DNA of 64,000 nt from a bacterium (GTDB lineage Bacteria > Patescibacteriota > Minisyncoccia > UBA6257 > WO2-44-18): the NCBI GenBank assembly GCA_030646995.1, contig JAUSKF010000002.1, positions 76,092 to 140,091 of the forward strand, written 5' to 3'. Both the position numbers and the translations under genes were made by a program. The notes beneath the pieces are model-generated. The model was not told where the DNA came from, made no database searches, and worked only from the letters and a program-made list of their open reading frames with translations. Shown in pieces: positions 4,319 through 62,851 of the stretch (positions within the stretch are counted from its first letter, which is position 1; each line of letters opens with the position of its first letter).

Positions 4319-4687
4319 ATGATCCAAGAACGAACAATCTTAAAAGTTGCCGACAATTCAGGAGCGAAAACCGTTCGTTGTTTTCGCGTTCTCGGAGGTA
4401 GTCGCCGCCGCTACGCCGAAGTAGGGGATGTCATCGTGGCTTCTGTACAGGTAGCCGAACCGAGGAAGCCGGTAAAGAAAAAGGATGTTGTGAGAGCGGT
4501 GGTAGTCCGTCAGCACAAAGCCTTGCGTCGCGCCGATGGATCCTATGTGCGCTTTGACGACAACGCGGTCGTTTTAATTGACGACAAACTTGAGCCAAAG
4601 GGCACCCGCATCTTCGGACCAATTGCCCGCGAGGTCAAAGAAAAAGGTTATGAAAGTATTGCTTCATTAGCAGAAGAATTAATTTAA
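4319..4687 (+). CDS. rplN: 50S ribosomal protein L14
   Basis: 122 aa, [17 protein letters not shown]... highly conserved L14 start. Confidence 0.95.
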
Positions 4688-4700
4688 ATACTTAAATACC

Positions 4701-5021
4701 ATGCTTAAGAAAAACGACACAGTAAAAATAATCGTAGGAAAAGATCGCGGTAAAACCGGCAAGGTTTTGCGCGTGGATGTAAAGAATGGAATGGTGCTGG
4801 TAGAAGGCTTAAACACCGTTAAAAAGCATGTCCGTCCGAAAAAACAGGGGGAAAAAGGCCAGACGATTTCCTTGCCGCAGCCTTTATATTTTTCAAAAGT
4901 TATGCTATTTTGCTCTAGTTGCGCCAAAGGCGTAAGAACCAGGGTTAGAATGACCGAAAATAAGACTTCCAGTGTCACCCTAAAAGAGAGGGTGTGCATA
5001 AAATGCCAGAACGTAATCTAG
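4701..5021 (+). CDS. rplX: 50S ribosomal protein L24 (KOW)
   Basis: KKNDTVKIIVGKDRGKTGKVLRV... KOW motif; operon position. Confidence 0.85.
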   Translation: MLKKNDTVKIIVGKDRGKTGKVLRVDVKNGMVLVEGLNTVKKHVRPKKQGEKGQTISLPQPLYFSKVMLFCSSCAKGVRTRVRMTENKTSSVTLKERVCIKCQNVI

Positions 5022-5734: not shown

Positions 5735-6118
5735 ATGTTAAACAATCTTTTAATTACAATTAAAAACGCCCAGAAAGCACGGAAGGAAGCCGTGAAATTA
5801 CCGTACTCCAATTTTGACTTTGCAATCGCGGAAATTTTGGCGAAAAGAGGTTTTGTGGAAAGCGTCGCTAAAAAAGGCCGCATGCCGAAAAGAATAATTG
5901 AAGTAAAGATTAAATATGATGCTAACGGGCTAGGAGCAATCACCGGCATCAAAGTATTGAGCAAGCCATCCCGCCGCTTATATTCCGGCTACGCCGAGTT
6001 AAGAGCCGTTAAGCAGGGCTACGGTGTTTCTATTGTATCCACCTCAAAAGGAGTTATGACTTCCTCTGAAGCCAGAAAACAGAAAGTCGGCGGTCAATTA
6101 CTATTTGAGATCTGGTAG
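5735..6118 (+). CDS. rpsH: 30S ribosomal protein S8
   Basis: 127 aa, operon position, S8-like C-terminus ...GGQLLFEIW. Confidence 0.9.
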   Translation: MLNNLLITIKNAQKARKEAVKLPYSNFDFAIAEILAKRGFVESVAKKGRMPKRIIEVKIKYDANGLGAITGIKVLSKPSRRLYSGYAELRAVKQGYGVSIVSTSKGVMTSSEARKQKVGGQLLFEIW

Positions 6119-6137
6119 AGTAATCACGAATAAAAAA

Positions 6138-6726: not shown

Positions 6727-7080
6727 ATGAACAAAGCACAACTAAAAAATTTAAACAGGGGATTGAGGCAGAAACGTAACCGAGCGCGTGTTTCCGGCGT
6801 CTCCGAAAAGCCGAGGCTTTCCGTATTCCGGAGCAATAAATACACCTACGCTCAACTCATCGATGATGTTAACGGCCGCACAATCGCCTCTGCCTCCACT
6901 CAAGAGCTAAAAAAGAAAGGCAAAAAAACCGAACTCGCCCAAGAATTAGGGGCTTTGATTGCCGAAAAAGCAAAAAAGGCGGGGGTTACGGAGGCAGTTT
7001 TCAATCGCTCGTTCTATAAATTCCACGGCCGCATTAAAGCAGTCGCCGAAGGAGCTAGACAAGGAGGCCTCAAAATTTAA
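6727..7080 (+). CDS. rplR: 50S ribosomal protein L18
   Basis: 117 aa, RLSVFRSNKYTYAQLIDD... typical L18. Confidence 0.85.
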   Translation: MNKAQLKNLNRGLRQKRNRARVSGVSEKPRLSVFRSNKYTYAQLIDDVNGRTIASASTQELKKKGKKTELAQELGALIAEKAKKAGVTEAVFNRSFYKFHGRIKAVAEGARQGGLKI

Positions 7081-7117
7081 ATTTTTAAATATTTAAATAA
7101 AAAAATACACAACCAAC

Positions 7118-9480: not shown

Positions 9481-9533
9481 GGGCTCCGGGAATAGCCTCC
9501 GGCATGTTCCTCGAAACTATTCCCTGCGCTTTG
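9481..9533 (+). repeat. short (53-bp) member of a dispersed structured repeat family (GGGCTCCGGGAATAG...CTATTCCCTGCGCTTTG)
   Basis: Matches the two ends of the 141/149-bp copies at 58299-58439 and 21179-21327; starts on the nucleotide after the secY stop codon. Confidence 0.7.
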
Positions 9534-12355: not shown

Positions 12356-13666
12356 ATGAAGCAAGAAAAAAGAAACAGAGTTCATTTCATCGGCATCGGC
12401 GGGATTGGTATGAGCGCTTTGGCGCGATATTTTTTATCCGAAAAATGGCAGGTCTCCGGCTCCGACCTCTCCCCTTCATCTATTACCGACGAATTAAGAA
12501 AGGAGGGGGTGAAATTTTTCTCTGGTCATAAGGCTGCGAATATTTCTACAAACATCCAACTCGTCGTCTATAACAATGCGATTCCCGTCAGTAATCAGGA
12601 GTTAAGCTACGCTAAAGAGCTTGGACTCGCCTGCCGCACCTATCCGGAGGTCGTGGGTGAATTAACTAGAACTTACAAAACCATTGCCATCGCCGGCTCA
12701 CACGGGAAAAGCACTACCACCGCAATGACGGCGCTGATTCTTATTGAAGCCGGAATCGATCCGACAGTAATCGTAGGCACAAAATTGAAAGAGTTTGGTC
12801 CGCCATCCGCCCCTTCTGGCGGAGGCGGAAAAAATTTCCGTAAGGGAAAAGGCGGGTATCTGGTGCTCGAGGCCGATGAATGGAAGGCCGCCTTCCACCA
12901 CTACTCCCCTTTTGTGGCGACTATCACCAATATCGATGCCGAGCATTTGGATTTTTATAAGACTTTCGCCAACGTAAAAAAATCTTTTGAGAAATTTAAA
13001 TCACAGTGCCATAAAATCGTGGAGCGTCCGACCGACAAAAAAATTGCGGAAAAGATTCGCCGCGTCTTAAAAATACCCGGAGAGCACAATGTGCAAAACG
13101 CCTTGAATGCCTACGCGGTGGCTAGTTTTTTGGAAATCCCAGAAAAGATAATTTTGTCGGCTCTGGGTAAATACCAAGGCGCTTGGAGGCGAATGGAGTA
13201 TCGCGGAAAACTCGGGAATGCCCTCGTTTATGATGACTATGGCCACCACCCCTCCGAGATTAAGGCTACCCTAGCCGGATTTAGGCAGAAATGGCCTAAA
13301 AATGCCCTAATTTGCGTCTTTCAGCCCCATCAGGCCAAGAGACTAGTTGCGCTCTATGATAGCTTTAAAACGGCGTTTAAGGACGCTAGTCGGGTGGTTA
13401 TTCTACCTACCTATCAGGTAGCGGGCCGGGAAGCGGAAAAAACCAACAACCGACGACTAACAACTAACGACAAAACGGCGGAGGGGCTGGCTAAGGACAT
13501 CGGGGCCACTTACGTTCCCCATCCCGAAATAGACCTGAAAAAAGTCTTACTTTCCCTAGTCGCCCGGTCGTCAGTCGTAGGTCGTCAGTCGCCCCCCGTT
13601 ATCGTAATGATGGGCGCCGGAACTATTAACGAACTAACCCCCAAGCTACTAACTACTAACTACTAA
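12356..13666 (+). CDS. murC: UDP-N-acetylmuramate--L-alanine ligase
   Basis: N-terminal HFIGIGGIGMSALA, Mur ligase middle domain GSHGKSTTTAM, YGHHPSEI motif. The 3' end sits in a CTACTAA heptanucleotide repeat. Confidence 0.8.
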   Translation: MKQEKRNRVHFIGIGGIGMSALARYFLSEKWQVSGSDLSPSSITDELRKEGVKFFSGHKAANISTNIQLVVYNNAIPVSNQELSYAKELGLACRTYPEVVGELTRTYKTIAIAGSHGKSTTTAMTALILIEAGIDPTVIVGTKLKEFGPPSAPSGGGGKNFRKGKGGYLVLEADEWKAAFHHYSPFVATITNIDAEHLDFYKTFANVKKSFEKFKSQCHKIVERPTDKKIAEKIRRVLKIPGEHNVQNALNAYAVASFLEIPEKIILSALGKYQGAWRRMEYRGKLGNALVYDDYGHHPSEIKATLAGFRQKWPKNALICVFQPHQAKRLVALYDSFKTAFKDASRVVILPTYQVAGREAEKTNNRRLTTNDKTAEGLAKDIGATYVPHPEIDLKKVLLSLVARSSVVGRQSPPVIVMMGAGTINELTPKLLTTNY

Positions 13667-13678
13667 CTACTATTTTGT

Positions 13679-16698: not shown

Positions 16699-16743
16699 TT
16701 GAATTTTTGTCCTTACTACTTACTACTCGCTACTTACTACTTT

Positions 16744-21085: not shown

Positions 21086-21178
21086 GCAACTTCCTTTCAA
21101 AGTTTCTAGCAAGATTATAGCCACGATAAGGAAAAATGACAATGGCTCGGTCTAATTACTTACAAGAACTCGATCCTC

Positions 21179-21327
21179 CAAAGCGCAGGGAATAGTTTCG
21201 AGGAACATGCCGGAGGCGATTTTGCTTGGTTCGTTTGTTAATACAAACGAAAAATCGCCGAGGGAGAGGCAAATTTGCTCGCTGGAAGCAAATTATGCCG
21301 TTTCCGAGGGGCTATTCCCGGAGCCCC
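21179..21327 (-). repeat. 149-bp full-length member of the structured repeat family
   Basis: Reverse complement aligns end to end with 58299-58439 except for a different-sequence central hairpin; abuts the ychF stop codon. Confidence 0.7.
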
Positions 21328-22346
21328 TATCCGTGACGGAATTCGGTAACGTCCCCATCCTGAAACACATATTCTTTTCCTTCTAAGCGGAGCCAGCCTT
21401 TTTGCTTGGCAGAGCTCCAAGAACCGGCTTCTAATAGTTTTTGCCAGTTGATGACTTCAGCTCGGATGAATTTCTTTTCAAAATCGGTGTGAATAGCGCC
21501 GGCGGCTTGCGGAGCTTTGCTTCCCTGTCGGATCGTCCAGGCGCGAGATTCATCTGGTCCGGTAGTGAAGAAGCTCATTAGGCCGAGGATTTCATAAGCT
21601 TTTTTCACCAGCTCTGGAATTTCAGCGGCAGAAGAAAGATCAGACACCACATATCCCGCTCCCCTTTCGGCAATCTTTCCCTTCAAATCTTCAGACACAT
21701 CCTCCGGTTTGCCGTTCAATAAATAAACCTGCTTTTTCGCGGTGAGCAAATTTAGAGCGGAAACTTTTTCATTCTCCAAAGCCTCGGCAAATTCCGGAGT
21801 AGCCAAATTTTTCCCGGACTCCAATGCTTCTTTAACTTTTTTAATTGCTTCAAAATCTTTGATTGCCTGCTTTTGCGCGGGCCCGCCGGTTTTCGTGTCG
21901 CCTTCCGCTTTTTTATAAACTTTTTCTATTGAATCCAAATCTTTCAACCCCAGCTCGGCGTTGATAATCTCCATATCCCGAATTGGGTCAACCGAATTTT
22001 CCACGTGAATAATTTCACTACTCTGAAAAACACGAAGCACCATCAAGACCGCGTTGGTTTCGCGGATGTGGGTCAAAAATTTATTTCCCAAACCCTCTCC
22101 AGCACTCGCGCCCTTCACCAAACCGGCAATGTCGTAGAACTCCACTATGGCAGGAATGGTTTTCGCTGACTTACTCATTTCTGTAAGCTTGCTCAAACGC
22201 TCATCAGGAACGGTAACCACGCCTACATTCGGATCAATTGTGCAAAAGGGATAGTTGGCAATATTTACGTCATTTTTCGTGAGTATTTTAAAGAGCGTGG
22301 ACTTCCCCACGTTCGGCATCCCCACGATTCCGATAGATAATTTCAT
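21327..22346 (-). CDS. ychF: redox-regulated ATPase YchF (Obg-like GTPase family)
   Basis: MKLSIGIVGMPNVGKSTLF...NYPFCTIDPNVG; start set at the internal Met. Confidence 0.85.
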   Translation of the reverse strand: MKLSIGIVGMPNVGKSTLFKILTKNDVNIANYPFCTIDPNVGVVTVPDERLSKLTEMSKSAKTIPAIVEFYDIAGLVKGASAGEGLGNKFLTHIRETNAVLMVLRVFQSSEIIHVENSVDPIRDMEIINAELGLKDLDSIEKVYKKAEGDTKTGGPAQKQAIKDFEAIKKVKEALESGKNLATPEFAEALENEKVSALNLLTAKKQVYLLNGKPEDVSEDLKGKIAERGAGYVVSDLSSAAEIPELVKKAYEILGLMSFFTTGPDESRAWTIRQGSKAPQAAGAIHTDFEKKFIRAEVINWQKLLEAGSWSSAKQKGWLRLEGKEYVFQDGDVTEFRHG

Positions 22347-24910: not shown

Positions 24911-24916
24911 CCCCAT

Positions 24917-24951
24917 CCCCGTGTTCAACGCGTTGAACACGGGGATTTTTT
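24917..24951 (+). terminator. rho-independent terminator, member of the CAACGCGTTG hairpin family
   Basis: CCCCGTGTTCAACGCGTTGAACACGGGG perfect 28-nt palindrome + TTTTTT. Confidence 0.75.
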
Positions 24952-29592: not shown

Positions 29593-31416
29593 ATGAGGTA
29601 CTTATCTACTCTGGTCCGGATCATCCTACTCTCCTTCATAGTTTTCTTAGCCGGAGTCTTAATGGTCAAAAGCTCCCTTGGAGACTCTCCTATTAGCCAA
29701 GAACCCGCCAATTTAGCCGCCGGCTATGGCTATATAAGACTTCTGGACTATCGACTTGGTGTGGAGCAACCGCCACTCGGCAAGGCTTTATCTGCGGTGC
29801 CACTTTTATTTCAAAAATTAACCTTCCCAATCGCCAGCTTGAACTGGCAACGAGATATTAATAGCTCGCAAGCCGTCGGCCGGCAATTTCTGTACGAATC
29901 AGGAAATAGCCCGAGTCAGATGATTAACGCCAGAAGAATCGTGCCGATTATTTTTACTTTATTATTAATCCTCGCAATTTATTGGACATCTAAAGAATTA
30001 ATCGGAAAATGGTGGGCGCTTTTGCCCGCTTTTCTTTTTGCCTTTTTCCCAACCGCGCTGGCCTACGGGCACTATGCCACCACTTCAGCCGCCTCCACTC
30101 TAGCAATCTTTGGAGCGGTAATAAGTTTTCTGTGGTTCCTCAATCAACCCTCCAAGCGAAAAATGCTCTGGGCGGCCGTCGCTTTCGGATTAGCTCAACT
30201 AACCACCTTCGCGGCTTTAATTCTTATTCCCTATTTTCTGATAATTTTGACAATTTTCTATCTGGCAAGCGTAACACGAGATTACCGGATGACTGACCCG
30301 CGCGAGCGCTTGCGACGCTTTGGCTTGCGGGCCTTTCGTTATTTTCGGTCACTGATGGTTATTTTCACAATTGGTTTCTTGTTGGTTTTTAGCATTTATT
30401 TGCTTTTCACTTTGAGCTACCCGCTTGAGAAACAGCAATCCGACACCACTTTCATCCTCGATCAATTCCAACCGCAATGGCTGGGCGACTTCGTAACACA
30501 AATTTCCGGCACGCCCGTCTTGCGGGCTGCCGCGCATTATCTTTTGGGAATTACATTGAATTGGCCGGTAGAATCCAACTCTGCAGAAGGGTCGCTCTTG
30601 ATAAGCGCGGGCCTCAAAACCCCAATCGCTTTGCTATTGCTGATACTCATCTCCTTAGTATTTTCTCTGATGAACATTGGCAAAGCCCTTTGGAGCATGC
30701 TCCGCCGCCGCACAAAGAACTTTTCTGATTATTTAAATACCGACTTCACTGAATTCGCGATGTTAATTTTCACTGGAACCTACTGGGCCGGTAGCCTAGC
30801 ACTGGGCGCGACAGGGTTAGAAAAAATACTACCCACACTCCCCTTCTTGTTCATCTTAATCAGCAACGGAATCAGAAAGTGGTCTGCCGGCACAGAGCTC
30901 GCCAATGCCCGCAATTTGGTAATCAAAATATTTCTAGTATACGAAGAATTTCTCCAACTTTCTTTAAAATCCGCAGCTTTGATAATTCTGGTAGTCGCCT
31001 ATTTCATAACTCCTCTGATTACCTATCCTCATTTTCTATCATTCTCTAATTTGCTGGCCGGCGGCACAAAAAACGGCCATCGACACCTCACCGATTCAGA
31101 TTATGACCTCGGCCAAGATTTAATCCGCCTTAAAACTTGGACTGTGGCTAACCTACCCGAATTTGATAAAATTGCCGTGGACTATTCCGGCGGCGGGGAT
31201 ATAAAAATCATAGCGCTAGCCGAAGAGTGGGAGTCCGCAAAAGGCGACCCGATTAATGATGGAATCCGCTGGCTTGCAATCTCCGCAACTACGCTCGCCA
31301 ACGCAAAAAAATCTGCCAATGCCGAAGATCAATATATCTGGCTAACCGCGTCCGCCAGCTGGCGGATTTACGCCCGCGCCGGAACTTCGATATTTATTTA
31401 TAAACTGGTGGAGTAA
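29593..31416 (+). CDS. large polytopic membrane protein, possibly GT-C-fold (PMT/ArnT-like) glycosyltransferase
   Basis: 607 aa, >10 predicted TM helices; family assignment by architecture only. Confidence 0.4.
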   Translation: MRYLSTLVRIILLSFIVFLAGVLMVKSSLGDSPISQEPANLAAGYGYIRLLDYRLGVEQPPLGKALSAVPLLFQKLTFPIASLNWQRDINSSQAVGRQFLYESGNSPSQMINARRIVPIIFTLLLILAIYWTSKELIGKWWALLPAFLFAFFPTALAYGHYATTSAASTLAIFGAVISFLWFLNQPSKRKMLWAAVAFGLAQLTTFAALILIPYFLIILTIFYLASVTRDYRMTDPRERLRRFGLRAFRYFRSLMVIFTIGFLLVFSIYLLFTLSYPLEKQQSDTTFILDQFQPQWLGDFVTQISGTPVLRAAAHYLLGITLNWPVESNSAEGSLLISAGLKTPIALLLLILISLVFSLMNIGKALWSMLRRRTKNFSDYLNTDFTEFAMLIFTGTYWAGSLALGATGLEKILPTLPFLFILISNGIRKWSAGTELANARNLVIKIFLVYEEFLQLSLKSAALIILVVAYFITPLITYPHFLSFSNLLAGGTKNGHRHLTDSDYDLGQDLIRLKTWTVANLPEFDKIAVDYSGGGDIKIIALAEEWESAKGDPINDGIRWLAISATTLANAKKSANAEDQYIWLTASASWRIYARAGTSIFIYKLVE

Positions 31417-31518
31417 TCACGAATAATGCAAATTAATTAACTAAATAATGCGAATGGTAATCCGCACTTCTTATTCGCAATATTACCTCCCCCAATTCGT
31501 ATTATTAGCGATTACTCC
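31405..31518. repeat. 114-bp intergenic element bounded by inverted copies of the GGAGTAATCRCGAATAA motif, each overlapping the stop codon of a convergent gene
   Basis: Left CTGGTGGAGTAATCACGAATAA (+), right TTATTAGCGATTACTCC (-); internal partial copies GGTAAT..GCGAATAA. Confidence 0.6.
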
Positions 31519-32256
31519 TTACCTGCTTTTAAGGTAAATCCGGTTTTCTACAGTAAAGTCTACGTATTCAGAAGTCCGCAGTTTGCCGGACAACATCAAA
31601 TCCTGAAGATAAGAAAATATTTTTAGAGAAGGTAAAAATCGGACGCTAAAAATTAACTTTTCCCCGCGCACGCCAAAAGCAGTCAGTTCCTGTAGACGCG
31701 CGTCAAAACGATATTCGCTGACTCCCAACACCAACCCATTCAATCCGGCCATAATCCTTTGCACGTTCTCAAAGGCATCAACCGCCATCACAGAATCTCC
31801 AATTCTGACAATTTTGCCGGCCGCATCCACAATCTTAGGAATGGCCGAACCCTCGGTGTCGGGGGCTTTCTCTATTAACTGCCCGCCTCGGCTAATCCAA
31901 TAGCAATCATTACTGCACCAGATTGCAAACCTATCAGCCGCTCTGGCCACTATTCGCAAAGTGCCGGTCAAGAAGTCCTTCTCTACCTTAAATCCTGAAA
32001 CCGTGGACGGCCAAGAAAGGAAGTTTCCGAAACCTAAAAATCTGGCTAAGTCGCCATTCAAAAGCTCCCCGCGAATCTCCTCGAAGTCCGCAGAGCCGGA
32101 AACATCAAATTTCTTAATCCGAAAAAAATCAAAATTTAAAAGAGTGTACAAAATGCCTAATCCTAGAAAAGTCAGCAGGCCTGCGTAGCAATAAAGTTTT
32201 AATCTAAGTCTGCGGTAGTATTTTCGCTTTTGAATTTTAGAAAGAGGTAGAGCCAT
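31519..32256 (-). CDS. FtsQ/DivIB-like cell-division protein (TM + POTRA)
   Basis: N-terminal TM, then FRIKKFDVSGSADFEEIRGEL POTRA-like; downstream of alr. Confidence 0.45.
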   Translation of the reverse strand: MALPLSKIQKRKYYRRLRLKLYCYAGLLTFLGLGILYTLLNFDFFRIKKFDVSGSADFEEIRGELLNGDLARFLGFGNFLSWPSTVSGFKVEKDFLTGTLRIVARAADRFAIWCSNDCYWISRGGQLIEKAPDTEGSAIPKIVDAAGKIVRIGDSVMAVDAFENVQRIMAGLNGLVLGVSEYRFDARLQELTAFGVRGEKLIFSVRFLPSLKIFSYLQDLMLSGKLRTSEYVDFTVENRIYLKSR

Positions 32257-33995: not shown

Positions 33996-34024
33996 TGACT
34001 AACAACAACTTACGACGAACGACA

Positions 34025-34053
34025 AAGCCTCCGAGAAATCGGGGGCTTTTTTA
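34025..34053 (+). terminator. rho-independent terminator
   Basis: AGCCTCCG-AGAAAT-CGGGGGCT + TTTTTT. Confidence 0.6.
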
Positions 34054-34074
34054 TTCGCGATTACTCCACCTGTC

Positions 34075-34175
34075 CGTCATTGCGAGGATTCACCAGAATC
34101 CGTGGCAATCTTACTATAGTGCGATTTATAAATAGCTTTTCTGCTAGATTGCCGCGGGATTACCCTCGCAATGAC
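34075..34175. ncRNA. 101-nt nested long hairpin element flanked by direct copies of TTATTCGCGATTACTCC (34051-34067 and 34185-34201)
   Basis: Outer 12-bp perfect inverted repeat GTCATTGCGAGG / CCTCGCAATGAC, inner CCGTGGCAATCT / AGATTGCCGCGG; lies between CPBP and serS 3' ends. Confidence 0.4.
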
Positions 34176-34184
34176 AGCCGGGAC

Positions 34185-35498
34185 TTATTCGCGATTACTC
34201 CTGATTTCTTTCTTGCCAACCAATTTTCTCAAAACTTTCGGTACCATCACCGTCCCCTCTTTAGTCTGATAATTTTCCAGAATCGCGATAATGATACGCC
34301 CGATGGCGAAAGCAGTAGCGTCGTTCATATGCACGAACTCGGTCTTCCCATCTTTCCGGCGGACCTTCGTCGATAATCGACGAGACTGGTAATCGGTCAT
34401 CAAATCAGAAGTATGGGTCTCGCGATATTTATTCTGACCGGGAAGCCAAGCCTCAATATCAATCTGCCGATAATCTGGACCGCCCATATCGCCGGTGCAA
34501 ACCGAAACCACCTGATATGGAATCTCCAGCTGCTGCATCAGATACTCCTGAATACCCACGATAAAATCTTGCTCCTTACGGGAATTTTCGGGAGTCGTGA
34601 AAGACTCCATTTCCAACTTATCGAACTGATGCATCCGCAAGATTCCCTTTACGTCTTTTCCGTGGGAACCGGCCTCACGGCGGAAGCTAGTGGAATAGCC
34701 GATATATCGTAAAGGAAACTTATCCTCCTGAATCGTAGAATCCATATGAATCGGACCGAGTGTATGCTCGGCGCTTCCAACAAGATAGATGTCGTCTGTC
34801 TGCAAATGATAACGCTCTTCTTCTTGGCCGGGATCTAATCGAGCCATTCTCTTAAATACTTCCGGCTTAATCATTACAGGAGGAAGGACCGGCACAAAAG
34901 GCTTCGCCGAATATCCTTTTTCAACTTGGTTAGCAATCTTTTTTAAAACTTTTTCATTTCCCAGCGTATCAAATACGAATTTGATGATTGCCATCTGCAA
35001 TAAAGCCGCATCCCCTTTCAGGTAAGCAAAACGGCTGCCGGAAACTTTTCCGGCGGTTTCAGTATCAATGATTCCTAGCGCTTCGCCGAGAGTCAGATGA
35101 TCTTTCGGTTCGAAATTAAATTTAGTCGGAGCGCCTTCACCCGCCTGGGCGGGCCACTGGCGGATTGGTTTATTCCCCGATTCATCAGGCCCCACCGGCA
35201 CATCGTCAGCTGGTAGGTTTGGGATTTTTACCCAAGCCAAATGCCTTTCTTTCTCCAATTCCGGCAGTCCCACTTCAGCCGCTTTCATTTCTTCTTTCAC
35301 TTTTTTCGCCTCTTCGATATTCCGCTCTTTACTGAACTGATTCAGTTTCGCGCGTAAATCCTCAATTTTCTTTACCGCCTCACGCCATTTGGTATCTTTT
35401 TCTAATAATAAATCCACGGCAGCAGCCGGCACATTCTTTTTGGCAACGCCATCTTTAACTAAATCTGGATTTTTGCGAATGAGTTCGATATCCAACAT
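34185..35498 (-). CDS. serS: seryl-tRNA synthetase
   Basis: MLDIELIRKNPDLV N-terminal coiled coil, class II motifs; start moved to the internal Met at 35498. The track ORF is extended upstream through the heptad repeat. Confidence 0.9.
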   Translation of the reverse strand: MLDIELIRKNPDLVKDGVAKKNVPAAAVDLLLEKDTKWREAVKKIEDLRAKLNQFSKERNIEEAKKVKEEMKAAEVGLPELEKERHLAWVKIPNLPADDVPVGPDESGNKPIRQWPAQAGEGAPTKFNFEPKDHLTLGEALGIIDTETAGKVSGSRFAYLKGDAALLQMAIIKFVFDTLGNEKVLKKIANQVEKGYSAKPFVPVLPPVMIKPEVFKRMARLDPGQEEERYHLQTDDIYLVGSAEHTLGPIHMDSTIQEDKFPLRYIGYSTSFRREAGSHGKDVKGILRMHQFDKLEMESFTTPENSRKEQDFIVGIQEYLMQQLEIPYQVVSVCTGDMGGPDYRQIDIEAWLPGQNKYRETHTSDLMTDYQSRRLSTKVRRKDGKTEFVHMNDATAFAIGRIIIAILENYQTKEGTVMVPKVLRKLVGKKEIRSNRE

Positions 35499-35504
35499 AC
35501 AAAT

Positions 35505-35545
<41 letters not shown>

Positions 35546-35548
35546 TCG

Positions 35549-35575
35549 GAACAAAAATCCATATGTCCAACGCGT
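35549..35575 (-). terminator. second of two tandem rho-independent terminators (CAACGCGTTG family)
   Basis: CCATATGTCTAACGCGTTGGACATATGG on minus strand followed by ATTTTTGTT. Confidence 0.65.
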
Positions 35576-35587
35576 TAGACATATGAA

Positions 35588-35615
35588 AAATAAAAATCCC
35601 CATGTCCAACGCGTT
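35588..35615 (-). terminator. first tandem terminator (CAACGCGTTG family) after the 88-aa gene
   Basis: CCCCATGTCCAACGCGTTGGACATGGGG perfect 28-nt palindrome, followed on minus strand by ATTTTTATTTTT. Confidence 0.75.
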
Positions 35616-35632
35616 GGACATGGGGATTCTAG

Positions 35633-35899
35633 TTAACAGCCGTTTTCCGGAGACCACTTCTTGTCGGCCGAAGTCTCTTCTGCTGTCTTTATCAGCCTCC
35701 TGGTTTCGGCATGAGAGTCAATTGGCTTTGGGGATTCCACTTTCGGAGTGAAGGGATAAGAGACCTCATTGAGCATTTCTACTGACCCTTCGCTGGTTTC
35801 CAGCAAAAGGTATCTTCCGCAGTCTTTGACCTTTACCCCATGACTCTGAAACAGGGCCGCGAGCTGTGCGACATCAATTTCCATGGCTTTCCTCCTCAA
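35633..35899 (-). CDS. hypothetical protein (88 aa)
   Basis: GAGGAGG RBS, TTGCTT-16-TAAAAT promoter-like element upstream. Confidence 0.45.
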   Translation of the reverse strand: MRRKAMEIDVAQLAALFQSHGVKVKDCGRYLLLETSEGSVEMLNEVSYPFTPKVESPKPIDSHAETRRLIKTAEETSADKKWSPENGC

Positions 35900-37869: not shown

Positions 37870-37883
37870 TGTTGTATATTCTA

Positions 37884-37945
37884 ACTATTTAAACATTTAA
37901 ATATTTAAATATCAAGCAAAAATTTAAATATCAAGAATTTAAATC
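37884..37945. repeat. cluster of ATTTAAATATTTAAA-type motifs upstream of greA
   Basis: TATTTAAACATTTAAATATTTAAATATCAAG...AATTTAAATATCAAGAATTTAAATC. Confidence 0.6.
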
Positions 37946-38694: not shown

Positions 38695-39027
38695 CTAATT
38701 AAAAAAATCTAAGCCTATTTTATTCAGCACAAAATAGAATACTGAAGAAATTATGCCGAGCATCCAGTCAAAAATTTTAGCAAAAAATCTAACCACTATC
38801 ATCACTATCTTCCAAACCCCTGCCAAAAATCCCTTAGCCTGCTCTTCTGTGGGCAGTGCCTTATTAATCTCTTGCGCTACCGGAGCGATGTTAATCTTTT
38901 TTTGAATCTCCTGATTAACGGTTTTAGCGGCATCTAAAGCTTTATCAAAATTTACTTCGGCCAAGACGGGCGTGGCAGAAAGTAGTAAGTAGAAAATAGA
39001 TAGTAGAATAATTCGAAAAGGTATCAT
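38695..39027 (-). CDS. small secreted protein (110 aa)
   Basis: Signal peptide IFYLLLSATPVLA encoded by the AGTAGTAAGTAGAAA repeat; overlaps next gene start by 4 nt. Confidence 0.45.
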   Translation of the reverse strand: MIPFRIILLSIFYLLLSATPVLAEVNFDKALDAAKTVNQEIQKKINIAPVAQEINKALPTEEQAKGFLAGVWKIVMIVVRFFAKIFDWMLGIISSVFYFVLNKIGLDFFN

Positions 39028-40283
39028 AGGTAATTTCTAGGATTTAAATCTCCACCAAAGGGCATTGACCCGCAGACGCGACTCGCTCCCATATAGAAGG
39101 TCTGCGCGGCGTAAACTGTGAAATGAAGGTGTGGGCCGGTAGCGTAACCAGTGCGCCCCACATAGCCGATGAGTTGACCTCTCTTAACTATATCCCCTTT
39201 CTTGATTAGTTGTCCGTCCACACTTCCGAACCTGGAAAGATGCGCGTAAAGAGTGGTGAGGTTATTATCGTGCTGAACTACGATGAATTTTCCGTAAGCT
39301 CCCCGATAACAAAGCTGGTCCTGGTCTCCTATCGCCACTACCGTGCCATCTTCAGCAGACCAGACCTCCGAACCAATCGGCGCCCCAATATCTACTCCAT
39401 TGTGAAATTGCCCTTTGTACCCATATTTTGCGAAAGCAGTCGCGCCGTAATCCTGCGTCATCACTCCGGCGGCAGGCATCGCCAGCACTCCCGGCCTAGG
39501 GATTGGCAGCAACGAGGGATCAATACTTGCTCGCAATTCTTTTTCAATTTTTTCTATTTCCGCGGAAATATCCGCCTGTTTTTTAGATAAATCATCTAAA
39601 ACCAGCGCGTAAACCTTTTCCTGACTTTTTGTCTGAGTCAAAAGCTGCTGCCGCTCGGTTTTTTGATCGGCAACGATATTCTTGCGATTTTTTAGAGTGC
39701 TATTTTCTACTTCTATTTTTTTCTTTTTAGAACTAGTGGTTTGAAACTTACCATCCAGCTGCTGGCCCAATTCTTTCAAATTCGTAACTTCGGTGGAAAT
39801 TCCGTTGTTTAAGCTGGCGATACTTTCATTCTCCAACACACTCTCCGCCAAACTGCGGTTCTTCAATAACATCATCAGCGACCCCTCGCCGTCCTTTTCA
39901 TACAACTCACGCATTAATATAATCAGAGCAAGTTTTTTAGTGCCTACTGAGGCATTGATTTGGTTGATATCCAACTGAACTTCCTGTAATTCCAATCCCA
40001 ATTTTTCAATATTTATCTGACTAGACTTAATCCCCAAATTTAACTGATTAATGCCGTAATCTATGGTCTTGATCTCCTTACTCAAACTCTTTTGCTGACT
40101 CTGTGTCTGCTCTATTTGTTTCTGCGTAGCCTGAATCTGATTATTGATTTCCAATAATCCTTTGGCCTTCTCTTCAATGGCCTTACGTAAATCATCGGCG
40201 GCTGAAGCGCCCGCTGGCGCGGCAGAAAGTAGTAAGTAGAAAGTAGTAAGTAGAAAAACTGTAGCTAAAATAGAGCGTTTCAT
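39024..40283 (-). CDS. M23 family metallopeptidase with N-terminal coiled coil (EnvC/LytM-like)
   Basis: Signal peptide TFYLLLSAAPAGA; HxxxD and HxH M23 motifs (HNGVDIGAP, GPHLHF). Confidence 0.75.
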   Translation of the reverse strand: MKRSILATVFLLTTFYLLLSAAPAGASAADDLRKAIEEKAKGLLEINNQIQATQKQIEQTQSQQKSLSKEIKTIDYGINQLNLGIKSSQINIEKLGLELQEVQLDINQINASVGTKKLALIILMRELYEKDGEGSLMMLLKNRSLAESVLENESIASLNNGISTEVTNLKELGQQLDGKFQTTSSKKKKIEVENSTLKNRKNIVADQKTERQQLLTQTKSQEKVYALVLDDLSKKQADISAEIEKIEKELRASIDPSLLPIPRPGVLAMPAAGVMTQDYGATAFAKYGYKGQFHNGVDIGAPIGSEVWSAEDGTVVAIGDQDQLCYRGAYGKFIVVQHDNNLTTLYAHLSRFGSVDGQLIKKGDIVKRGQLIGYVGRTGYATGPHLHFTVYAAQTFYMGASRVCGSMPFGGDLNPRNYL

Positions 40284-54093: not shown

Positions 54094-54140
54094 AGAATAC
54101 TTAATACTAGCTACTTTCTACTAACTACTAAAATTGTGCG

Positions 54141-58262: not shown

Positions 58263-58298
58263 TGGCAATAAAGTAGCAAGAAATCTTATTAAAGTCAA

Positions 58299-58439
58299 GG
58301 GCTCCGGCCAATAGCCCCTCGGAAACGGCATAATTTGCTTCCAGCGAGCAAATTTGCCTCTCCCTCGCTTCGCCACTTTAGATAAGACCAAGCTGGCGAA
58401 GCTCCGGCATGTTCCTCGAAGCTATTGGCCTGCGCTTTG
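58299..58439 (+). repeat. 141-bp full-length member of the structured repeat family, in the divergent SPFH / membrane-protein promoter region
   Basis: Shares both ~50-bp arms with 21179-21327. Central hairpin differs in sequence but keeps pairing. End pairing GGCCAATAGC/GCTATTGGCC covaries with GGGAATAG/CTATTCCC of the other copies. Confidence 0.7.
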
Positions 58440-62335: not shown

Positions 62336-62794
62336 CTAGCGGGAAACGGAAAGTGAAGTGGAGGCTTGTCCGGAAATTGTTTCTCCGTATTTTCCTTCCA
62401 CAGTAACTCGCCCAGCGTTATTCGCGATATCGTAATTAGTATCGTAATCGGTGCCACTAGTGAATGAACCGGCCGAAGGATCAAATGGCAAGCTGGTCAT
62501 ATAGGTAGGCACGAGACACTCATAGATGTCATATCCGCCGGTAGACTGCATCGTAGTAGTCGCAGTCGGAAGCGCAGCGCAATCGCCGGAGGTCTCCCAA
62601 ACACCGCGGTTATCAGCCAAGCGCTGGCCAACCGCGTTCAAGATGGCGTTGATGTTGGCGGAGCGTTGAGTGTTCCGAGCCTGGGCAAATTGCCGAGCCG
62701 GGTTCAAAGCTACGATAACTACTCCAGCCAAGATCGCGATAATGCCGATAACAACCAACAATTCGATCAAAGTAAAACCTTTTTTGTTTTTCAT
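62336..62794 (-). CDS. type IV pilin (prepilin with N-terminal cleavage/methylation motif)
   Basis: MKNKKGFTLIELLVVIGIIAILAG class III signal peptide; C-terminal Cys pair; start set at internal Met. Confidence 0.7.
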   Translation of the reverse strand: MKNKKGFTLIELLVVIGIIAILAGVVIVALNPARQFAQARNTQRSANINAILNAVGQRLADNRGVWETSGDCAALPTATTTMQSTGGYDIYECLVPTYMTSLPFDPSAGSFTSGTDYDTNYDIANNAGRVTVEGKYGETISGQASTSLSVSR

Positions 62795-62851
62795 AGTAAA
62801 TAATGTAATTTTCACGACCTTTCTTGATACACAATCACTTCAATTATTATA

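Follow-up and report, generated by a model that had tools for sequence, protein, structure and literature searches.

Several kinds of short repeats and small selfish genes are known from the borders of bacterial genes. The DNA uptake sequences (DUS) of Neisseria and the uptake signal sequences (USS) of the Pasteurellaceae are short conserved words forming inverted pairs 3' of genes, and in Neisseria and Haemophilus their density is of the order of one per 1-2 kb. Repetitive extragenic palindromes (REP), organized as inverted doublets (REPIN) and associated with RAYT (REP-associated tyrosine transposase) genes, fold into hairpins and are present in many non-autonomous copies per genome. Bacterial miniature inverted-repeat transposable elements (MITEs), such as Correia of Neisseria, RUP and Nezha, measure ~100 bp, carry terminal inverted repeats, occupy gene ends and intergenic sites, are internally deleted relatives of a longer element and can donate stop codons. 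Free-standing homing endonuclease genes (seg/mob of phage T4, or the PD-(D/E)XK enzyme I-Ssp6803I) are selfish nuclease genes wedged between host genes and co-oriented with them, and the Rickettsia palindromic elements are selfish ~100-bp palindromes that join reading frames in a reduced genome. Traits of each of these systems recur in a repeat family that we describe here from a 64,000-nucleotide stretch of a Patescibacteria genome (contig JAUSKF010000002.1, positions 76,092 to 140,091), hereafter the window, in which a 17-mer recurs on or beside stop codons.

We consider it fairly probable, at roughly 0.7, that the 17-mer is the outer end of a terminal inverted repeat and that the complete element in the window arose, in the manner of a MITE, by internal deletion from a selfish nuclease cassette. 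Its family occurs in Parcubacteria/Paceibacteria-type Patescibacteria, and the reading draws on the family's architecture, gene-boundary placement, polarity, link to a nuclease, empty sites in relatives and co-variation of repeat and gene.

Arms, inverted pairs and the enclosed nuclease gene

The pattern GGAGTAATCRCGAATAA was found five times in the 64 kb (Table 1), against 0.03 matches expected at two mismatches or fewer in dinucleotide-preserving shuffles of the window. At up to three mismatches, 0.42 matches are expected by chance and no further window copy was detected; none of the five lies in a gene interior. The sequence-only reading, made from the letters of the window without database searches, had reported these copies near stop codons, and both their positions and most of its detail hold. 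The rpsH stop (TAG) straddles the 17-mer, the 607-aa gene ends CTG GTG GAG TAA, the motif containing its stop (31414-31416), the reverse copy is touched by the TAA of the 245-aa gene (31519-31521), and serS ends AGG AGT AAT CGC GAA TAA, with its last four codons and stop supplied by the motif; the reading frame relative to the motif varies from gene to gene. The label "ftsQ-like" that had been attached to the 245-aa gene has no Pfam support.

In other genomes, a scan for the exact 17-mer with one genome per species returned at least 120 stretches, and the arm, pair and position counts given below rest on the matches listed. Among these, ~87 stretches come from Patescibacteria metagenome-assembled genomes (MAGs), labeled as Liptonbacteria, Harrisonbacteria, Wolfebacteria, Paceibacteria, Parcubacteria or "uncultured Saccharibacteria" and spanning 37-58% G+C, and 33 are single hits in unrelated phyla. 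Extra near-copies of the 17-mer occur, among the matches listed, only in the Patescibacteria loci, the unrelated loci having one extra in 242 kb. The richest genome, Liptonbacteria JACPLI01, has 50 copies in 186 kb of loci preselected for the motif. When the copies were aligned on the motif, conservation set in sharply at the first G of the 17-mer, YGCNAAT directly followed it in 184 of 197 distinct copies (93%), and a third subrepeat, ATAAYGCNAAT, stood 8-11 nt further on in 175 of them. Since most copies have this extension and all 32 chance hits lack it, the 17-mer forms the end of a ~44-nt arm, GGAGTAATCGCGAATAA-YGCGAAT-N8-11-AATAAYGCGAAT, which consists of three ATTCGC-type subrepeats. 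Two arm types differ in their spacer, the 5' type (B) reading ..GGCAAATAA or ..GGAGGTAATAA and the 3' type (A) ..GATTCAATAA. A profile built from the arms of other genomes identified in the window only two full arms, at 31410-31455 (E 9e-12) and 31473-31518 (E 2e-10), plus three solo 17-mers, the 17-mers at 31410 and 31518 being only the outer 17 nt of 46-nt arms. The sequence-only reading had named descent of all copies from a single duplicated segment as an outcome that would refute it; literally, the copies are not traceable to such a segment, yet all of them are ends of one repeat-element family.

The inverted arm pairs in the sampled DNA (n=47) fall into two size classes, with 41 pairs of 81-131 bp, the class of the window element, six of 460-515 bp, none in between and none larger. 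Every long pair encloses one open reading frame (ORF) of ~135 aa that belongs to the GxxExxY / PDDEXK_3 family; across ~0.9 Mb of Patescibacteria loci, the pairs contained this gene or nothing, and no other gene was found between them. The ORFs match TIGR04256 ("GxxExxY protein") at 109-113 bits (cutoff 35) and Pfam PF13366 (PDDEXK_3) at 108-114 bits (cutoff 22; E 1e-31 to 1e-33), and these are their only family matches, with no Y1 HUH transposase among them. Residues E63, D81, E91-x-K93 and Q105 are invariant and the QxxxY motif is present. An AlphaFold model (mean predicted local confidence, pLDDT, 90.7) was closest in Foldseek to the Cas4 protein SSO0001, lambda-type exonucleases and MGME1 (E 2e-5 to 1e-3, template-modeling score ~0.5). 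Based on the family matches, the invariant catalytic residues and the predicted fold, the protein is apparently a small RecB/Cas4-like PD-(D/E)XK nuclease and is predicted to be active. A survey of the PD-(D/E)XK superfamily from 2012 lists PDDEXK_3 as "Unknown", with multiple transfers (PMC3424549). Our literature search on the motif, the subrepeats, the nuclease family and repeats of the candidate phyla radiation (CPR) gave nothing relevant beyond that survey, and since it mostly did not cover subscription journals, a prior description is possible.

The start of the gene is built into the repeat. The full-length element (460-515 bp) is ordered as 5' arm, nuclease gene and inverted 3' arm, and the ORF starts at the ATG of the AATAATGCGAAT subrepeat in the 5' arm, which thereby carries the ribosome-binding site of the nuclease, its start codon and its first codons, M-R/Q-M-x-A-N-N-A-N; in one subtype, GGAGG precedes the ATG. 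In one long copy (L049) the ORF is broken. The right arm of the window element still bears the trace of this arrangement, as the GGAGG Shine-Dalgarno remnant of the nuclease gene is kept while both ATG positions are mutated (to ATA and ATT); the comparison is the 5' arm of L068, CGGGGGAGGTAATAATGCGAATG.., where a nuclease ORF begins.

A metagenome scan with an alignment of four nuclease sequences returned 80 loci. The 17-mer stood near 23 of the 24 examined homologues with at least 50% identity, and both 17-mers bracketed the gene in 16 of these 24 loci, giving elements of 460-501 bp; among the 53 scored at 46% identity or less there was none. Significant inverted repeats (z > 4 versus shuffles) flanked the gene in 45 of 77 scored loci, and these contain at least three short direct subrepeats of other sequence, namely ACGAAT, CACAGATT, CACGGAT, CATAGAT or TCCGTG. 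The cultured Flavivirga algicola (JABBHF01, L208 1936-2412) has the gene between co-directional genes, flanked by GACACGAATTTCACGAATTTTCACGAAT and its inverse, and in NC10 MAGs (L209/L210) the flanking repeats use CACAGATTTCGCAGATTACGCAGATT.

GxxExxY genes far outside Patescibacteria (L208-L210; L153-L202) were likewise seen with inverted subrepeat triplets, in tight junctions between co-directional genes. From these sequences, bracketing by inverted triplets and placement in junctions look like a general property of the GxxExxY family, for which we found no description.

Tandem duplication of arms is frequent, with a period of 46-58 nt on one side of the element, and gives three-arm or four-arm structures (L006, L011, L068 and L075 in JAUSKB01; L059 in MHJJ01; L100; L134, L136); nested insertion and slippage are possible origins. 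Spread by viruses was considered and rejected, as a scan of viral contigs gave four hits, all without the arm extension and therefore chance matches.

Gene junctions, empty sites and signs of spread

To describe the placement of the repeats, 172 Patescibacteria copies were classed by the feature touching the outer GGAG end. The stop of a long ORF lay within -8 to +14 of that end in 77 copies, with peaks at -2 (TA/G, the slash marking the boundary), +4 (GGAG/TAA) and +14 (the terminal TAA). The start of a gene of at least 70 codons on the opposite strand was abutted by 49 copies, 41 of them at 0-1 nt (CTCC-ATG or CTCC-N-ATG), and the remainder consists mostly of copies close to contig ends or in arms that are nested or in tandem. 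Of the 172, only 20 were inside a long open frame, versus 25 of the 33 chance hits in other phyla. These 20 come mostly from the high-G+C MAGs JACPLI and JAUSKB, and some of them, e.g., the 7193/7273 pair of L012, belong to complete intergenic elements. We read them as open frames running through an element. A Shine-Dalgarno or anti-Shine-Dalgarno role for GGAG was also tried and rejected, because the motif is at least 16 nt away from same-strand downstream starts and CTCC faces the starts that it abuts.

The two arm types divide these positions between them. Type A (3') arms meet starts in 22 cases and stops in six, whereas type B (5') arms meet stops in 24 and starts in six (Fisher p = 1.6e-5), and tandem junctions are ordered stop-B..A-start in 13 cases versus two reversed. 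In this polarity of 5' and 3' arms, the short elements match the long form. The elements occupy the exact junctions between genes and mostly follow the direction of transcription: the end of the 5' arm supplies the stop of the upstream gene (TA/G GAG TAA ... TAA), and the end of the 3' arm adjoins the start codon that comes next (CTCC-N0-1-ATG). Every long element has the orientation of the following gene, and in 14 of 19 metagenomic cases the 3' flank starts with (T)ATG. Insertion replaces junction sequence that is conserved in relatives and rewrites the tails of genes.

In the window, the complete element (31410-31518) is located where the 607-aa PMT_2 gene and the 245-aa gene converge, and it is assigned to the minus strand because its 5'-type (B) arm stands on the right. 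It folds into a hairpin of -33 kcal/mol (z -5.5). A scan for promoters and terminators found no sigma-70-like promoter and no U-tract terminator in the elements, the only terminator being the pre-existing one at 34024-34049. Searches against Rfam matched only a tRNA at gathering scores in the whole window, and nothing credible at permissive E-values around both loci.

Table 1. Repeats and related features of the window
Feature	Coordinates	Strand	Remarks
17-mer copy, AGAG variant; solo 17-mer AGAGTAATCACGAATAA filling the rpsH-rplF spacer	6117-6133	+	pattern search; rpsH TAG 6116-6118, rplF ATG 6138
17-mer copy	31410-31426	+	pattern search
Complete short palindromic element, 109 bp, non-autonomous	31410-31518	-	two full arms by profile
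Left arm, 3'-type (A): 17-mer GGAGTAATCACGAATAA + TGCAAAT + 10-nt spacer + AATAATGCGAAT	31410-31455	+	
Right arm, 5'-type (B'): GGAGTAATCGCTAATAA + TACGAAT + TGGGGGAGGT + AATATTGCGAAT	31473-31518	-	
17-mer copy, GCT variant	31502-31518	-	pattern search
Intrinsic terminator hairpin common to convergent CPBP and serS	34024-34049	+	not part of an element
17-mer copy, solo	34051-34067	-	pattern search; direct repeat of 34185-34201
117-nt hairpin of a second repeat family, GTCATTGCGAGG..CCTCGCAATGAC	34068-34184	-	flanked by two direct 17-mers
17-mer copy, solo, giving the last four codons and stop of serS (..KKEI-RSNRE*)	34185-34201	-	pattern search
Candidate structured RNA, copy 1	21178-21332	+	
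Candidate structured RNA, copy 2	58296-58432	-	
Candidate structured RNA, partial	9491-9533		
AT-rich motif	641-665, 951-983, 2678-2702, 4677-4701, 7070-7102, 37882-37941		
Heptamer arrays	13647-13672, 16717-16742, 35501-35543, 54105-54130; 38969-39011, 40216-40272		
33-nt palindrome	24915-24947, 35550-35634		

Syntenic relatives were collected through homologues of the neighboring genes, and empty sites were found for all three window loci. The orthologous junction between the 245-aa and PMT_2 genes is empty in L125 (69% identity), where the two stops overlap in CTAG, and in L126 (65%), with a gap of 5 nt; L122 (81%) and L124 (78%) have unrelated inserts there. The tail of the PMT_2 protein is ..IYKLN* in L125 versus ..IYKLVE* in the window, with VE* read from GGT followed by GGAGTAA. 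At the serS site, the relatives end in ..KKEIK* or ..KKEIKK*, with a terminator hairpin directly after, and the window has a block of 17-mer, 117-nt hairpin and 17-mer between ..GAAATCA and TAAAAAAGCCCCC. The terminal TAA of the copy at 34051 and the AAAAGCCCCC.. that follows are the counterpart of the ancestral serS stop and terminator, and terminators homologous to the one at 34024-34049 directly follow serS in L125 and L126, whose empty sites lack the 117-nt hairpin. As had been noted from the sequence, a hairpin stands between these two direct copies (-72.9 kcal/mol, z -5.9). The copies are 117 nt apart (34068-34184), and the hairpin, first given as 101 nt, falls within this interval. In the rpsH-rplF junction, the window reads TGGTA, GAGTAATCACGAA and then TAAAAAAATG, and in L212 (87%) and L214 (74%) the spacer is 6 nt (TAA-ACCAAT/TAAAAA-ATG).

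The same junctions hold other repeats in further relatives. At rpsH-rplF, L211 and L213 have an unrelated palindrome of 39-42 nt, and in Liptonbacteria L012 the site is taken by a short element (80 bp) from a different repeat family. These small palindromes (L211 1385-1423, L213 1385-1426, L012 3682-3762, together with L122 1757-1880 and L124 966-1065 at the 245-aa/PMT_2 junction) are unrelated to the 17-mer element and are built from subrepeats such as ATATCGA, AGTTATA and TACGAAC; therefore, some junctions seem to be colonized repeatedly by different element families.

Copies of the short element also group by genome. After removal of the ends that had been searched for, the similarity of the inner parts of short elements is 0.675 within and 0.624 between genomes (Mann-Whitney p = 1e-5), and the best partner is in the same genome for 19 of 36 short elements versus 7.7 expected. 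Between copies at different loci, identity is 83-91% in JAUSKB01 and 87-98% in Harrisonbacteria MHJJ01. The content of one orthologous junction, which separates a gene ending ..ADRHV* from an exonuclease gene that starts MDxLV.DIETKN, varies by genome: two genomes have a short element there, a third has a long element, and a fourth has a GxxExxY cassette with quite different repeats (of the CCAATATA type).

The proposed mechanism and its alternatives

The short forms are, in our reading, probably internally deleted, non-autonomous, MITE-like derivatives of the long form, and the GxxExxY nuclease itself may be what mobilizes the family. It would bind the triplet subrepeats of both arms and cut at or near the element ends, or cut empty junctions, after which host repair or recombination would copy or move the element; short forms would be served in trans. 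Transcribed copies would fold into long hairpins at operon junctions and might become substrates of RNase III as a side effect. A role in RNA processing at 3' ends, which the sequence-only reading had listed as an alternative, is possible in this sense. Its other alternative, a mobile-element end, is what the arms, the inverted pairs, the nuclease-bearing long form and the empty sites support.

Several points weigh against this reading or limit it. To our knowledge, PD-(D/E)XK enzymes alone do not act as transposases, and binding and cutting of the arms by the nuclease is put forward here as a proposal; the window itself contained no GxxExxY gene or pseudogene by tblastn and hmmsearch. The relatives with empty sites are at 65-87% protein identity, and for that reason insertion breakpoints are not definable from them. 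No target-site duplication is evident; a weak T/A bias is seen at positions -2/-1, for which stop and start codons are an equally good explanation, and TA is present on both sides of the element in some copies only. In different genomes, long elements are found again at identical orthologous junctions, a pattern expected as much from vertical inheritance or site-specific homing as from transposition. As the loci were picked by the exact 17-mer, conservation inside it is inflated and the independent evidence lies in the positions outside; likewise, the motif counts are lower bounds among the matches listed and not a true genome-wide census. Finally, solo 17-mers account for three of the five window copies but for only ~7% of copies elsewhere. 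Those at 6117, 34051 and 34185 may be remnants, or parts of composite insertions with the second hairpin repeat.

Among the alternatives, the one that survives best, itself unlikely, is that the arms are host "punctuation", i.e., cis-regulatory modules (an RNase III processing hairpin, a terminator or insulator, or a translation-start context) that are vertically inherited and conserved by the host at operon junctions, with GxxExxY as an occasional passenger. The exact placement of the ends at stops and starts, a polarity that follows transcription and the strong hairpins would all be expected of such modules, and genomes with only 43-62% identity in the flanking proteins have the element at shared orthologous junctions, with arms that are nearly identical. 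Nevertheless, close and distant syntenic relatives lack the element at the three window sites, with genes that overlap or lie 5-6 nt apart, and because these relatives do without it, no host function depends on the element there. Moreover, the window copy is between two convergent stops, where no promoter or start context is needed, and shows neither a sigma-70-like promoter nor a U-tract terminator. Near-identical subfamilies specific to one genome, a nuclease as the sole gene ever found inside a pair in the sampled DNA, and repeats that differ between nuclease clades also speak against a host module.

Slightly less probable still is that the element is a conventional MITE and depends on an unrelated transposase acting in trans (e.g., IS630/Tc1-like with a TA target), in which case GxxExxY would be cargo. 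The family resembles MITEs in size, copy number and terminal inverted repeats, the dinucleotide most often found at its flanks is TA, and the rpsH-rplF copy can be read as TGGTA/GAGTAATCACGAA/TAAAAAA versus TGGTAATAAAAA in a relative. Against this, TA on both sides is inconsistent, the start codon and N-terminus of the nuclease are built into the arm, and the type of repeat changes with the nuclease clade across phyla. A conventional transposase as driver is further disfavored because nothing but GxxExxY was found between the arms in the ~0.9 Mb of Patescibacteria loci.

It is very improbable that the 17-mer is an attachment or target site at which the 117-nt GTCATTGCGAG hairpin or other elements integrate, duplicating the 17-mer. 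The direct 17-mers at 34051 and 34185 flank the hairpin, in L018 and L085 a 17-mer is followed by a member of this hairpin family, and tandem arm duplications are common, all of which would suit such a site. But the empty serS sites of relatives contain no 17-mer, so that the two copies must have come with the hairpin or preceded it, 93% of the 17-mers elsewhere are arm ends without the hairpin, and the hairpin family also occurs without 17-mers.

The uptake-sequence reading favored by the sequence-only note is the weakest and hardly tenable, since, despite a short conserved word, inverted pairs downstream of genes and a window that does encode a prepilin-type protein, as that note had remarked (159 aa, N_methyl, PF07963, E 7e-10; 62336-62815, minus strand), the density is low (five copies in 64 kb, and no more than 50 in 186 kb in the richest MAG, even though its loci were selected for the motif), the word is part of a 44-nt arm of fixed internal polarity, is depleted from gene interiors (20/172 versus 25/33 chance hits), is placed at gene starts too, is linked to an enclosed nuclease gene, and is the same in MAGs labeled as several candidate phyla, with 37-58% G+C.

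If the nuclease does mobilize the element, as the preferred reading of a nuclease cassette proposes, it would represent a type of mobile element outside the known transposase classes. The uncharacterized GxxExxY/PDDEXK_3 family would gain a candidate role and a candidate DNA ligand in its own flanking triplet repeats. We also put forward, tentatively and as somewhat less than an even bet, that GxxExxY/PDDEXK_3 genes with inverted triplets are a previously unrecognized, nuclease-driven class of self-mobilizing elements in several phyla (Patescibacteria, Bacteroidota, NC10 and others) specialized on gene junctions, with the Parcubacteria 17-mer family as a branch that, in very small genomes, is rich in MITE-like derivatives. 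Selfish palindromes are tolerated by the streamlined genomes of Patescibacteria and reshape them at gene tails and operon junctions, including those of the ribosomal protein operon. Such repeats can account for odd C-terminal extensions and spurious small ORFs, and may account for contig breaks in MAGs.

Other repeats were observed in the window (Table 1). The second hairpin family (GTCATTGCGAGGGTAATCCCGYGGCAATCT ... TATAAAT ...) is common to the window genome and the MAG JBBTRE01 (H41-bin011_1), with copies at 34068-34184 of the window and, in JBBTRE loci, at ~5860-5960 of L018, ~4950-5030 of L098 and ~1260-1345 of L121; it often adjoins a 17-mer or arm, and sometimes a half-hairpin immediately precedes the start of a gene. 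Two copies and a partial one were seen of a candidate structured RNA (~140-155 nt), with conserved blocks TTCGAGGAACATGCCGGAG ... GAGGGAGAGGCAAATTTGCTCGCTGGAAGCAAATTATGCCGTTTCCGAGGGGC and no Rfam match; its closing helix shows two compensatory pairs (GGGAATAG/CTATTCCC versus GGCCAATAG/CTATTGGCC), and the internal hairpin sequence is unrelated between the two copies. A possible promoter or leader element is an AT-rich motif of the type TTTAAATATTTAAA, with ~11 copies, which lie between genes of the ribosomal protein operon and near 37.9 kb. Heptamer arrays (CTACTTT/CTACTAA in the direction of the gene) are located just upstream of several starts without a Shine-Dalgarno sequence, e.g., that of serS, and in two paralogous genes they encode a signal-peptide-like N-terminus, FLLTTFYLLLSA; the sole Logan contig found for this locus (L001, retrieved via the 607-aa protein) ends within or next to the array at 35.5 kb. 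In addition, a 33-nt perfect or near-perfect palindrome, ATCCCCGTGTTCAACGCGTTGAACACGGGGAT, is present at two places, with two in tandem upstream of serS.

Comparison with described systems

Compared with DUS and USS, the family differs in density, sequence context, occurrence in gene interiors and the linked nuclease gene. Uptake sequences also recur alone as short words, coding regions included, and go with a cognate receptor and a bias in uptake; in this respect, only the prepilin-type N_methyl protein was seen here. It goes further with REP/REPIN-RAYT, as in both systems the cognate gene is itself bracketed by inverted repeats and the repeat sequence co-varies with the gene clade. RAYT (TnpA_REP) is a Y1 HUH (IS200/IS605-like) transposase, whereas the gene here encodes a PD-(D/E)XK nuclease; a REP is an imperfect palindrome, whereas the arm is a triplet of direct subrepeats; and here the start codon of the gene is inside the arm and the element ends abut start and stop codons.

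The 41 pairs of 81-131 bp have the form of a MITE, a short non-coding unit bounded by terminal inverted repeats and present in many copies, and a longer element with the same ends exists, whose sole gene is a PD-(D/E)XK nuclease and not a recognized transposase. The parents of bacterial MITEs are DDE-transposase insertion sequences with defined target duplications, unlike here, where no duplication is evident and the long form encodes only a small nuclease. Homing endonuclease genes resemble the long form also in that their presence varies among relatives and the same junction is occupied repeatedly; they have, however, no terminal inverted repeats, no MITE-like derivatives and one cognate site, whereas here the arms are never missing and the occupied junctions number dozens and are unrelated. 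The Rickettsia palindromic elements insert in frame inside genes and have no known associated gene, whereas in the Patescibacteria family only gene tails are rewritten.

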